The notes under the pieces were generated by a model. It worked only from the letters and a program-made list of their open reading frames with translations, had not been told where the DNA came from and ran no database searches. From NCBI GenBank assembly GCA_027622375.1, contig JAQCAB010000003.1, forward strand, positions 22,797 through 86,796: a DNA stretch of 64,000 nucleotides. The letters are read 5' to 3'. Shown one piece after another: positions 40,972 to 44,471 of this stretch. Position numbers and translations under genes: made by a program. Position 1 is the first letter of the stretch, and the number at the start of each line of letters is the position of its first letter. The stretch comes from Bacteroidota bacterium (lineage in GTDB: Bacteria; Bacteroidota; Ignavibacteria; UBA10030; UBA8401).

Positions 40972-42966
40972 TTATTCTTTTTGTTCACCTTCAGTTTGTG
41001 TAGTTGCTTCTTCTTCAACTTCTGGTTTTGTTTCTTCTTGAACTGCAGCTAAAGTTCCCAATCCACTTTTTACATAAGTTCGAATCATTTTTGTAATTCT
41101 TCTTCTTGCTTTTAATTCATCATCAGGTGATAAAGATTTTAATGAAGCCATTCTATCTTCAAGTAGTGCTCTTGATTTAGATGGAAGCAGAGATAAAATT
41201 CTTTCATTAATTTCAGGAGGAGCATTTTTTAATGCCATTGATAATTCTTCACCCGAAATATCACGCGCAAGCTGTCGCAACATTCTATCATCCAATTTAC
41301 CAATAGCTTGAAACGCTACTCGTTGATTCGATATTTCACGGAATAAATCTAAGTTGATTGTTTTAATAAAATCAACTATTGTGGATTCAGTTGTTTCATC
41401 TAAATTATCAAAAATATCAAGTAGCATATCGCTACCTTGTACTTGTACATTATTTATAACAGGAATTGATGATGCTTTTGTTGCGAGTTGACTCGCTACA
41501 GATTTATATGTGTCTGAATCCATTCTTCTAAGTTTACCAAGTTCTAGTGCAACTTCTCCCTGTTGCATTGATGGTAAATTTTTCAACATTTGACTTGCAA
41601 TTGGGGTTGAAAGTTGCGAAAGAATTATTGCAATAATTCCAGGTGTTTCTTCTTTCATCATCATATACAATTGAGAATCAGTTAATTTTTCTAAAAAGGT
41701 AAAAGGATTTTTAGCTGTATTTCTAGACTCTTCAAATCGTTTGACCATAATTTGTGTGTCAAAATATTGAAGTGCTTGTTTTTTATCATCAAGTGTTTTG
41801 CTGATTGGCTCCAGTGTTATTTCTTGAATTTTTTTTACTTCCTCAAGTGAAAAATAATCTTTCATCACTTTCAACATACTTCCACCAAGTTGCTCGGTAA
41901 CCATTGCGAGTTTTTCTTTTTGAGCTGGATCTCCCAACATTTCTTTTATAACATTTGATGCAATGCTTGATTCACCTGCACAAGTTGCTAATAATTTTGA
42001 ACGCATTTTTTCAACTTCAAAACCATTTGTCATCTCTTGAACTGATTCTTCAAAACTTGGTCCCCTTTTTTCAATATTTTCTGCAAGTGCTGGAACTTCA
42101 AATTGTTGTTGCGGTAAATATTCTATTTTTGGTTCTTTATTTTTCAGTCTTGTCAAGAACATATTTATTAATAATAATGCAATCACGAGTCCTAAAAAGA
42201 TTATTAAAAACCATTTTATGAGTGGATCAAATGAATCTCTAGCTTGTTGCTGTTGATCCTGAAGTTTTAAACGCTCTTCATCAATTTTTGTTTTTGTTTC
42301 GTTTAATTGATTTGTGAGTTCTGTAATTTTATTTTGTTGCTCTGATGTAATTTTTTCTTGAGTTTCTTTAGTTGATTTTTCAAGTTCCTCGATACGTTTT
42401 ACATTTTCAATTCTAATTTGTTCCTCAATTACTTTTTTCTCTTGCTCTAAATTTCCAATTTTTTTTAAAGCTTCTTGATTTTGTTGTTCAGATTTCGAAA
42501 GTTGTTCAGTCGGGAATACCATATCTTGCATTTCAATTTTATCTCCTCTGTCATTGTCAAGTTTAGCGGTATAAAATGCAATACTTTCTAATAAATCACG
42601 ATCTTCTTTTGATCTATTTTTTTCTACAACCAGTTTAATAGTTATATTTTCAATTGTAGGCCTTTTACTTACTTCAGTTTTTGATGCATCAAATCTTGAT
42701 GGTTCAAAACCTTGTGCACCTGGCAATCCTAAATCGCGAATATCTTGTGATTCTTCAGTTTGTGCAACTTCAGTTTCAGCAAAAGTAACTTGAGCGCTAA
42801 CAATATATTTTAAATCTGTAAAATATTTTTTTATTTCATTTGATATTCTAGCTTCGAGTTCTCGTTCCAACTTTTTTTTATCTGCTTCTAAATCTGCAGA
42901 AATTAAATTTGTAGATAAACAAAAAGTCCCAAAAAAGATAAAAATTAAATAAATTGATTTTTTCAT
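40972..42966 (-). CDS. FliF(ring domain + C-terminal helix)-FliG fusion protein with signal peptide, coiled coil and one TM
   Basis: aa25-152 resemble FliF RBM3 (LERELEARI...LPG...ITIKLVV...RGDKIEM..F); aa155-245 coiled coil; TM at 249-271; aa321-344 FliF C-helix-like; aa347-402 FliG_N-like; PFTFL...EETPG FliG_M; LDDR..R...R.I....L.MALK.A...ARRRI..MIR FliG_C. Confidence 0.85.
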   Translation of the reverse strand: MKKSIYLIFIFFGTFCLSTNLISADLEADKKKLERELEARISNEIKKYFTDLKYIVSAQVTFAETEVAQTEESQDIRDLGLPGAQGFEPSRFDASKTEVSKRPTIENITIKLVVEKNRSKEDRDLLESIAFYTAKLDNDRGDKIEMQDMVFPTEQLSKSEQQNQEALKKIGNLEQEKKVIEEQIRIENVKRIEELEKSTKETQEKITSEQQNKITELTNQLNETKTKIDEERLKLQDQQQQARDSFDPLIKWFLIIFLGLVIALLLINMFLTRLKNKEPKIEYLPQQQFEVPALAENIEKRGPSFEESVQEMTNGFEVEKMRSKLLATCAGESSIASNVIKEMLGDPAQKEKLAMVTEQLGGSMLKVMKDYFSLEEVKKIQEITLEPISKTLDDKKQALQYFDTQIMVKRFEESRNTAKNPFTFLEKLTDSQLYMMMKEETPGIIAIILSQLSTPIASQMLKNLPSMQQGEVALELGKLRRMDSDTYKSVASQLATKASSIPVINNVQVQGSDMLLDIFDNLDETTESTIVDFIKTINLDLFREISNQRVAFQAIGKLDDRMLRQLARDISGEELSMALKNAPPEINERILSLLPSKSRALLEDRMASLKSLSPDDELKARRRITKMIRTYVKSGLGTLAAVQEETKPEVEEEATTQTEGEQKE

Positions 42967-43628
42967 GTTGCTCGACTGTAATAAATCCTAATTACAACTC
43001 TTCTGTTTTCATTTCGTGCAAAATCAGTATACATTCCTGTAGCAGGATCCGATTCTCTATTAACTGGTCGAGAATCAGCAAAACCAGTTGAAGATAATCT
43101 TTGACCTTCAATTAATACAGTATCTTCCAAAAAATGTAAAACCTCAGTTGCTCGCGCTGATGAGAGTTCCCAATTTGAGAAAAATTTTTCTTTACTACGT
43201 AATCTTGTATCATCAGTGTGTCCTTCTACAGCAAGATAAGCATTCCTCGCTTTAACAAAATATGCAAGTATTTGGCCAATTCGATAAATTGCATCATAAC
43301 CTTCTAGTTTTAAAATTGCTTCACCTGGTTGAAATAGCATACTACTTCCAAAACGTAACTCAATTCCCTCTTCAGTCATCACAACTGAAATTTGTCCTTT
43401 AAGTGCGGGAGAACTTTCAATTGTTTGTTTTAATTCATCTGAAAGTGTAGACAAACTAACTTGGTTTTTATTTTTAGAAGATGCAAAACTATCTAATTTA
43501 GATTGATCGGGAACAGACATTCCAAGTAACAAAACGAATGCAGCAAGTAAAGCAGTAAGCAAATCGATATAACTAACTTGCCAATGCTTTTCTCCCTCTT
43601 CGTGATGTATTTTATAATGTTTAGACAT
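42963..43628 (-). CDS. motB: MotB/PomB-family stator subunit with OmpA-like peptidoglycan-binding domain
   Basis: WQVSYIDLLTALLAAFVLLLGMS TM with the essential Asp (D22); VEGHTDD, NWELSSARA, NRRV. Confidence 0.9.
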   Translation of the reverse strand: MSKHYKIHHEEGEKHWQVSYIDLLTALLAAFVLLLGMSVPDQSKLDSFASSKNKNQVSLSTLSDELKQTIESSPALKGQISVVMTEEGIELRFGSSMLFQPGEAILKLEGYDAIYRIGQILAYFVKARNAYLAVEGHTDDTRLRSKEKFFSNWELSSARATEVLHFLEDTVLIEGQRLSSTGFADSRPVNRESDPATGMYTDFARNENRRVVIRIYYSRAT

Positions 43629-43631
43629 TTT

Positions 43632-44471
43632 TTATCCTGCTGGAACTTGCTCCATTTTTGGAATACTTAACATTCTACTTCCCGGAACATAAGAAATTAA
43701 TTTATCTTGTATAAATATCGGATGTTTTTTGTCTCTTATCAAAGTCAGTCCTTCAACAATCATACCTTTTAACATGACTTCTTCGTCTGTACGTTTTCTA
43801 ACTCTATCATGAAATGGACCATACACAAAGTTGAGAAACAATAAACCATATAGTGTGGTCGTGAATGCAACAGCCATTGCATTTAAAATTGGCTGAAATC
43901 CTTTTGCAGGATTAATTTCAGCAGAAAACATTTGAATAAGTCCAACAGTTGTACCTAACATCCCATAACCTGGAGCAAATCCTTCAGCTTCTTTAAAGAA
44001 ATCAACATCTTGCTGATCTCGAGCATTTTCATTTTGAATTCTTGAATCAAGTGTATCTCTTATATCCTCTTTGCTATAACCGTTGACTAAAAGTAATACA
44101 CCATCACGCATAAAAGGATATTTAATTTGATTTGCATATTCTTCGAGAGATTCAATATCGTGTGTTTGTGTATATTGAGCTATATCTCTGATTGCATCAA
44201 TGTAGACTGTAAAATCTATTTTGCTACCAAAAAATACGAAGTACAAAGTTTTTAAAGATTTTAAAATTTGTTTTGCATTAAAACTAATTAAAAGTGAGGC
44301 AAAAGGACCAATTACGCAAAATATAAAACCAGGAACGTGTATATACATTCTCAAGATTTCTGGAACAAACATATGTTGAAGTATTTCTACTTGTTCATGA
44401 TCTCCTCCAATGATCGCTAAAACATAAAAACTAATAGCAAAAAGTAAATATCCTGATAAGGTTGATATCAT
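43632..44471 (-). CDS. motA: MotA/PomA-family stator subunit
   Basis: PFMRDGVLLLVNG cytoplasmic domain, APGYGMLGTTVGLIQM, MAVAFTTTLYG...P, MIVEGL..I....HP..I.DKL. Confidence 0.9.
   Translation of the reverse strand: MISTLSGYLLFAISFYVLAIIGGDHEQVEILQHMFVPEILRMYIHVPGFIFCVIGPFASLLISFNAKQILKSLKTLYFVFFGSKIDFTVYIDAIRDIAQYTQTHDIESLEEYANQIKYPFMRDGVLLLVNGYSKEDIRDTLDSRIQNENARDQQDVDFFKEAEGFAPGYGMLGTTVGLIQMFSAEINPAKGFQPILNAMAVAFTTTLYGLLFLNFVYGPFHDRVRKRTDEEVMLKGMIVEGLTLIRDKKHPIFIQDKLISYVPGSRMLSIPKMEQVPAG

Follow-up and report, generated by a model that had tools for sequence, protein, structure and literature searches.

A rewritten charge pair at the putative stator–rotor contact of a cassette encoding a predicted FliF–FliG fusion in a Bacteroidota bacterium without a flagellum

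The contact between stator and rotor of the flagellum is among the best-studied interfaces in bacteria, and its charges are treated as near-universal. What should be made of a locus in which part of this charge pattern is altered, in a bacterium that has no flagellum? The locus lies in a 64,000-nucleotide stretch of DNA (hereafter the window) from a Bacteroidota bacterium of the class Ignavibacteria (assembly GCA_027622375.1, contig JAQCAB010000003.1, positions 22,797 to 86,796). On the minus strand of the window, positions 40972–46409 consist of five closely packed genes whose junctions are 4-base overlaps or gaps of 1–3 bases. They encode an outer-membrane protein, a secreted TPR protein, MotA-like and MotB-like stator subunits and a 664-amino-acid protein that, by its modelled fold, joins part of FliF to FliG. 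A preliminary description of positions 41131–44189, which extend from the torque helix of FliG as far as the contact helix of MotA, had proposed a compensatory charge swap between stator and rotor, from which it argued that this stator really drives this FliG domain and is insulated from flagellar parts. On balance, we consider it probable that the two proteins form a co-adapted, private stator–rotor contact in a working non-flagellar motor. The features on which this reading bears are the following.

43632..44471, minus strand: MotA/PomA-like stator A subunit, 279 amino acids (PF01618, 7.9e-19)
42963..43628, minus strand: MotB-like stator B subunit, 221 amino acids (MotB_plug, 4.8e-10; OmpA, 4.3e-13)
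40972..42966, minus strand: FliF-RBM3/transmembrane/FliG fusion protein, 664 amino acids (FliG_M, PF14841, 2.8e-14; FliG_C, PF01706, 3e-16)
44139..44171, minus strand: stator contact helix, MotA residues 101–111 (T-Q-T-H-D-I-E-S-L-E-E), counterpart of the flagellar RxxG-phi-phi-xLE motif
41128..41190, minus strand: rotor torque helix and next loop, fusion residues 593–613, placed by alignments to flagellar FliG

The host of the window is a bacterium without a flagellum that carries a flagellar-type ion motor. Its assembly (1.73 Mb, 100% complete) contains three MotA/ExbB genes and a single FliG_C match, in the fusion protein; in the same 1.73 Mb, there were zero matches to FHIPEP (FlhA), YscJ_FliF, Flagellin_N and FliMN_C, each of which was detected in control genomes.

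Charge states at the putative stator–rotor contact

The contact helix of the MotA-like protein reads T101 Q102 T103 H104 D105 I106 E107 S108 L109 E110, and the torque helix of the FliG-like protein reads K597 S598 R599 A600 L601 L602 E603 D604 R605 M606; both translations were re-read, and the residue numbers given in the preliminary description were all right. With R90, E98, K264, R281, D288, D289 and R297 of E. coli taken from the K-12 record, MotA R90 falls on Q102 and E98 on E110, and the FliG equivalences are K264=K580, R281=K597, R287=E603, D288=D604, D289=R605 and R297=S613. The contact motif RxxG-phi-phi-xLE, in which PomA R88/E96 and E. coli MotA R90/E98 are the same conserved charged pair according to the available text of bioRxiv 10.1101/2021.01.07.425829 and to the column alignment with flagellar MotA proteins, is replaced by Q-T-H-D-I-E-S-L-E. 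What persists is the Leu-Glu and the first hydrophobic residue; three of the five fixed motif positions are altered (Arg to Q/N/S, Gly to D and the second hydrophobic residue to E); the same text terms the motif Gly completely conserved. Among the five classical FliG charges, the sign is retained at K580, K597 and D604 and reversed at R605, and S613 carries no charge.

These states are shared by the family. Related loci were collected in a genome scan (21 loci) and a metagenome scan (22 loci), both of which returned only the window's cassette family; some alignment rows are one sequence present in two collections, and 34 loci, 25 of them distinct, have both proteins. At MotA column 102, Arg occurs in 0 of 38 cassette rows, all of which have Q, N or S, and in 30 of 30 same-class flagellar MotA proteins. 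D105, E107 and E110 are invariant in the 38 cassette rows, as is E/D111. Column 105 is Gly in all 30 flagellar proteins, column 104 is H, R, K or N in the cassette family and an acid in 28 of 30 flagellar MotA, and column 110 is Glu in 29 and Asp in 1 of the flagellar proteins. On the rotor side, none of the 44 cassette rows has an acid at column 605 (R, K, H, Q or Y), which is basic or His in 41 of them; K597 is invariant, and 604 is D or E throughout. All 30 same-class flagellar FliG proteins have K, R, E, E and R/K at the columns of K264, R281, D288, D289 and R297. Thus, both partners of the R90–D289 pair differ from every sampled flagellar paralogue in every family member, and the E98–R281 pair is retained as E110–K597.

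The loss of the MotA Arg, the retention of the Glu and the added acids D105 and E107, first noticed in the window, are therefore seen both in its sequence and in the family. To these changes the family alignments add the replacement of the motif Gly by D105, that of the acid at column 104 by H/R/K/N, R287 to E603 in the window's clade and R297 to S613. As a whole, the rotor helix has gained basic charges (R599, R605 and K610), and the stator helix carries an acidic patch (D105, E107 and E111).

Alignment register

The substitutions would be illusory if the register of the stator or torque helix were shifted, and two alignments do shift E. coli MotA. One was a MAFFT alignment in which E. coli was the sole flagellar sequence, dropped after 30 PomA-type rows had been added; the other was an hmmalign run to the cassette profile, discounted for its low posteriors (3–8). 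Neither was retained, since a long insertion of E. coli MotA falls in this region and the PomA-type rows align here gap-free. Against an artefact, phmmer searches of solved Vibrio PomA and MotA chains (four distinct sequences) match Q102 to the Arg and E110 to the Glu; the same register is repeated by a profile of 17 family members against these chains and by MAFFT with 30 same-class flagellar PomA-type MotA proteins plus E. coli, so that four pairwise HMMER alignments, one profile and one 37-row MAFFT alignment concur. The hmmalign posteriors are maximal for the PomA-type flagellar rows, and the spacing from S/A-L-E to the downstream F/Y-M/L-x-x-G is identical and gap-free in MotA chain 6ysf. 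No gaps are needed to align the FliG helix with T. maritima, H. pylori, E. coli and 30 flagellar FliG proteins, and this confirms the change of R281 to K597, the retention of D288 as D604 and the change of D289 to R605. The register of the preliminary description was upheld at all five positions, and an artefact is very improbable.

The rotor: a predicted FliF–FliG fusion

The 664-amino-acid protein consists, in order, of a signal-like leader, an RBM3/collar-like domain, a coiled coil, one predicted transmembrane helix and FliG (N-like, M and C domains).

42487..42903, minus strand: RBM3-like periplasmic domain with collar insertion, fusion residues 22–160 (AlphaFold2 model and Foldseek)
42154..42222, minus strand: predicted single transmembrane helix, fusion residues 249–271 (hydrophobic stretch read from the translation and conserved in the family alignment)

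It differs from the free cytoplasmic FliG of ~330 amino acids in its size and its predicted membrane anchor. Besides the two Pfam domains, the FliG part matches T. maritima FliG chain 1lkv (5.6e-27) and TIGR00207 (2.6e-27 over residues 403–635; 96 bits, below the equivalog cut-off of 226.7), and the full-length A. aeolicus FliG chain 3hjl aligns to residues 335–635. A weak MgtE_N match (0.0023) falls on the same region. In the FliG_M domain (41464–41676, minus strand), the protein has E-T-P-G where T. maritima FliG has the FliM-binding E-H-P-Q, and most relatives have D-E-P-P/A-G; this fits the lack of FliM/FliN-type genes.

The FliF MS-ring is a ring of ~33–34 subunits. The model of residues 22–160, built from a 21-row alignment (predicted local distance difference test score, pLDDT, 70), has the order alpha-beta-loop-beta-alpha-beta, its insertion loop being unmodelled. 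Each of its 18 highest-ranking Foldseek matches in the PDB is an RBM3/collar or S-ring structure of the FliF MS-ring, with E values from 3.7e-4 to 4e-3 and a TMq of at most 0.58; 6sd1_A ranks first (E 3.7e-4, probability 1.0, TMq 0.52). On this modelled fold, the 664-amino-acid protein is a natural FliF–FliG fusion. RBM1 and RBM2 (YscJ_FliF) gave no match in the fusion protein or the genome, and the protein has one hydrophobic helix and a signal-like leader rather than two membrane helices. A loop at residues ~65–102, between the first two RBM3-like strands, has a pLDDT below 50, yet contains a family-invariant D-x-x-L-P-G-x-x-G-F; by position, it matches the collar insertion of FliF RBM3.

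A profile search with the fusion protein returned 3142 relatives at E <= 0.001 and 114 at E <= 1e-30. Among the 150 relatives listed, most have ~600 amino acids and are matched over almost their whole length, and the source labels of close homologues are Ignavibacteria or Bacteroidota metagenome-assembled genomes.

The stator

The MotA-like protein matches the NCBIfam models MotP (1.4e-38; 132.5 bits, cut-off 394) and PomA (4.5e-36; 124.4 bits, cut-off 341) but falls far short of the equivalog cut-offs for a stator A subunit. The family profile matches solved PomA 8bri at 4.2e-34 over residues 36–268, together with nine further solved MotA/PomA sequences, and P167 and P219 are family-invariant and align with the conserved PomA prolines. 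The MotB-like protein combines a plug and a channel Asp with a peptidoglycan-binding domain of OmpA type; its D22 is equivalent to the channel D32 of E. coli MotB (BLASTP). The stator is, we infer from sequence, of the MotA5B2 type.

Two further observations concern the ion. The best NCBIfam matches of the MotA-like protein are the sodium-type MotP and PomA. At residues 174–175 and 204–206, its predicted channel helices have invariant Thr, and PomA has Thr at the same aligned places; such PomA Thr residues are tied to sodium use.

Conservation and selection

The order outer-membrane protein, TPR protein, MotA, MotB and fusion protein is constant in every locus with enough contig. The cassette could nevertheless be a decaying remnant of a lost flagellum and its odd residues damage, as the absence of FlhA, FliF-family, flagellin and FliN matches from the window genome and the presence of flagellated relatives might suggest. 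Such decay is hardly credible. In all genomes scanned, the cassette frames are open, with no internal stops, and the five-gene synteny persists across sequences of just 33–50% identity. The pairwise ratios of nonsynonymous to synonymous substitution rates (dN/dS; estimable pairs, with dS at or near saturation) are 0.05–0.23 for MotA, 0.03–0.20 for MotB and 0.04–0.46 for the fusion gene. In flagellated relatives, the cassette exists alongside complete flagellar fliF, fliG and mot genes. Cassette stators from both Bacteroidota types form one group in a small MotA tree, apart from the flagellar ones (Shimodaira–Hasegawa-like approximate likelihood ratio test, SH-aLRT, 93); with one very long branch as its sole outgroup, the tree gives no more than a hint of this split. 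Because dN/dS is low and the channel Asp and the MotA prolines are kept, the cassette is not decaying; the earlier statement that it is no relic is borne out by purifying selection (overall dN/dS 0.03–0.46). Four metatranscriptome runs of one study contain 17–19% of the sampled words, and only two 18-base pieces of one contig matched, which speaks neither for nor against transcription.

Co-adaptation, independent change or no contact

In the motor that we infer, with its physical contact, ring formation, rotation, co-adaptation and insulation, these proteins would supply both stator and rotor of a rotary cassette of five genes that works independently of a flagellum. A single polypeptide would make up the rotor, with a periplasmic FliF-like ring-building domain, one membrane helix and a complete cytoplasmic FliG. 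The MotA pentamer, turned by ions flowing through MotA/MotB, would drive the fusion-protein ring by pushing on its FliG C-terminal domains. The core residues of the interface are kept, namely stator E110, which would lie opposite the basic rotor residue K597, and the acid D604. On the stator side, a basic R-K/R start and an invariant Gly have given way to uncharged residues and the acidic patch; on the rotor side, the second acid is lost and the three basic residues are gained. The result would be a private docking code that keeps cassette and flagellar stators off each other's rotors in relatives with both. We read the change as such a code because the R90–D289 half mainly governs stator docking in E. 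coli/Salmonella: the available text of PMC4030992 assigns R90–D289 mainly to stator positioning and E98–R281 to torque, and reports that FliG D289K or D289A partly rescues motility and stator localisation in MotA R90E. The direction of change in the cassette is complementary, with a stator helix that is acidic throughout and a rotor helix that is more basic.

The genomes of relatives would give a private docking code a use, since two rotor–stator systems coexist in some of them. The cassette occurs in seven genomes of the window's family, four of which (G075, G378, G439 and G487) also have a flagellar-type FliG_C (138–142 bits); G075 further encodes FliF, a FliG that exceeds the equivalog cut-off, FlgL and two sets of flagellar stators that retain the canonical residues. 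In six distant, architecturally matching cassettes from other Bacteroidota families, position 605 is Glu in all six and MotA 102 is basic (Lys/Arg) in four of six, at moderate alignment confidence. Across 135 representatives of the fusion superfamily, column 605 is an acid in 56, basic in 4 and something else in 75. Because the distant cassettes keep Glu605 and mostly a basic residue 102, and because 605 is basic in just 4 of the 135, the joint change is peculiar to the window's family.

Several results weigh against a co-adapted docking code. R90 is replaced by neutral Q/N/S and not by an acid, and the new acids stand elsewhere (D105 for Gly and E107 for a hydrophobic residue). The triplet R287-D288-D289 has become E-D-R, so that the net charge of the rotor triplet is the same because R287 and D289 are both reversed. 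Both changes map to one stem branch, which makes them a single event. Within the family, the 34 loci provide 2 independent contrasts, and the sign test (p = 1) has no power; the covariation tree was built from 416 columns, trait columns included. A second clade combines Arg/Lys at MotA 104 with Gln/Asn at 603, Glu at 604 and His/Gln at 605, states that fit no simple pairing rule. Given its wide variation among the 135 representatives, column 605 may be weakly constrained across the superfamily. In the available text of bioRxiv 10.1101/2021.01.07.425829, crosslinking places FliG R281 and D288 near MotA, and not D289, K264 or R297, so the rotor residue that differs here may not touch the stator directly. 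Finally, the same code is present in three of the seven cassette genomes, the window genome included, in which no flagellar FliG was found, so insulation is not required to maintain it. A complex prediction of the MotA-like protein with the FliG C-domain scored 0.00 in both runs, which had no controls, and counts for neither side.

The compensatory swap first proposed therefore stands in part: both positions of the pair are altered family-wide, although R90 became neutral and the change is one stem event. As for covariation within the family, the residues at FliG 603/605/610 differ from clade to clade along with MotA 104 (H versus R/K), with only two independent contrasts behind a powerless test.

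These results leave room for an explanation in which the two changes are independent. A dedicated fusion rotor may not need dynamic stator recruitment, which would have freed the docking pair and let each side drift; the new states would then be separately constrained, neither compensatory nor insulating. The single stem event without statistical covariation, the neutral replacement of the Arg, the high variability of column 605, the failure of D289 to crosslink to MotA in the text cited above and the persistence of the code in the three genomes without flagellar FliG all agree with this explanation. What speaks against it is that no drift is seen, with the four stator acids invariant and 605 nearly always basic or His, that the changes run in complementary directions and that fusion alone did not free the docking pair, because distant cassettes with the same fused rotor keep Glu605 and mostly Lys/Arg102. 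We regard independent change as doubtful. It is also conceivable, if improbable, that the MotA-like stator does not act on the torque helix at all, the FliG part being a scaffold or sensor and the stator working via MotB or another partner. The MgtE_N match, in a domain family that resembles the MgtE N-domain, would suit such a role, as would the non-canonical residues at three of the five classical FliG charges and at three of five positions of the stator motif. However, the MotA, MotB and fusion genes adjoin one another in the same order in every long-enough locus, the residues crosslinked nearest MotA in the available text (R281 and D288) and the stator Leu-Glu are exactly those that are kept, and conservation is equally high in FliG_C and in MotA (mean column identity 73% and 72%, respectively).

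The co-adapted contact thus remains the reading that we favour, and insulation is a plausible origin of the code. A further step, which is possible rather than probable, would make the cassette an orthogonal rotary motor, flagellum-derived or flagellum-related, that is able to share a membrane with a true flagellar motor, its docking half rewritten and its torque half untouched. An intact, selected motor family that departs at one charge pair and keeps the other would be a natural test of the idea of separate docking and torque pairs, and of whether a few charges set specificity between co-resident motors. The data support the cassette as a working machine and bear on the origin or reuse of the flagellar motor core.

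Other cassette genes and related loci

The first two genes of the cassette encode envelope proteins.

45297..46409, minus strand: outer-membrane protein of the cassette, 370 amino acids (no Pfam or NCBIfam family)
44473..45300, minus strand: secreted TPR protein, 275 amino acids (TPR_2, 1.1e-8, residues 233–263)

The 370-amino-acid protein occupies the head of the cassette in relatives too. Its AlphaFold2 model (pLDDT 68, predicted template modelling score 0.40) has a signal peptide, a periplasmic domain and then an 8-stranded barrel. In Foldseek searches, the periplasmic part matched the LpoB C-domain 4q6l (TMt 0.64) and TolB (E 1.7e-6, yet a TM of just 0.17), and the barrel matched OmpA 1qjp (TMt 0.59) and the designed barrel 6x9z (TMt 0.75). 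As modelled, the protein resembles an LpoB-C/TolB-N-like periplasmic domain joined to an OmpA-like outer-membrane barrel. Weak Foldseek matches were also obtained to the Vibrio flagellar H-ring protein FlgT (3w1e, E 2.1e-3) and the LPHT ring (8z5n), and its look-alikes in the ESM Atlas are clusters from Bdellovibrionota and Balneolota and clusters bearing LpoB/CsgG. The 275-amino-acid TPR protein has a hydrophobic N-terminal leader without Cys, and its place in the cassette is conserved. With a barrel/periplasmic protein, a secreted TPR protein and a peptidoglycan-binding MotB, the cassette is predicted to span the envelope.

The distant cassettes are L028, L137, L138 and L139 (family f41), L031 (the second cassette of G223, a genome that holds two) and L136 (family f39). 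Their gene order is an outer-membrane-like protein of 990–1530 amino acids, the fusion protein, a small TPR-like protein, MotA and MotB; MotB has ~580 amino acids in four of the six loci and carries a SPOR domain in L028. The state of MotA column 110 in these six divergent cassettes (A/S/K) was left uninterpreted, as the posteriors of the contact helix are just moderate. At L029 (3857–4888, minus strand, in G340), a 343-amino-acid frame matches only the RBM3-like domain profile (4.7e-15), with no FliG part and no neighbouring MotA in the 9 kb covered. In the flagellated same-class genome G012, a second FliG-like frame of 466 amino acids (G012:C21:44908-45618; FliG_C 75.8 bits, TIGR00207 114.5 bits) adjoins the canonical fliG.

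Comparison with known systems

ExbBD, TolQR, GldLM, ZorAB and AglRQS share with the cassette a MotA/ExbB-family channel subunit, a B subunit with the channel Asp and a non-flagellar use; to our knowledge, none of them has a FliG partner. The cassette stator differs from these in that it aligns full-length to PomA and has a plug. According to the available text of a 2025 survey of stators (mBio, PMC12505986), other 5:2 motors lack the torque-generating interface and the plug of flagellar stators; FliG is named once in that text, in the introduction, and the supplements could list stators such as those described here.

Like flagellar stators, that of the cassette possesses a plug, a channel Asp and the two conserved prolines. 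Compared with the flagellar torque interface of E. coli and Vibrio, the helices are homologous, and the Leu-Glu, K264, a basic residue at R281 and an acid at D288 have all been retained. By contrast, a basic residue or His stands at the D289 position, Ser replaces R297 and, in the window's clade, Glu replaces R287. Unlike flagellar FliG, the FliG of the cassette lacks a FliM/FliN partner, with no FliMN_C match in the genome and E-T-P-G in place of E-H-P-Q.

We found no description of a natural form of the cassette in the literature, and the published FliF–FliG fusions that we found are engineered only. Those of Salmonella/Vibrio (e.g. PDB 8z4d) likewise combine the RBM3/S-ring part, a membrane helix and FliG in one chain, and the 8z4d chain matches the cassette fusion both by sequence (the FliG part) and by fold (the S-ring). 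The natural protein differs from them in lacking RBM1, RBM2 and the first membrane helix; a signal peptide takes their place, and a long coiled coil precedes its membrane helix.

The closest parallel to the altered charges is provided by the laboratory suppressors that combine MotA R90E with FliG D289K or D289A. In these, as in the cassette, the same two positions are altered jointly, and the rotor residue of the cassette is basic. In the cassette, however, the stator residue is neutral and its neighbours supply the acid, and the combination is natural, fixed in the family and part of a non-flagellar cassette. If the cassette is indeed an orthogonal motor, it would amount to a natural charge-reversal suppressor experiment, one that shows which residues set stator–rotor specificity.

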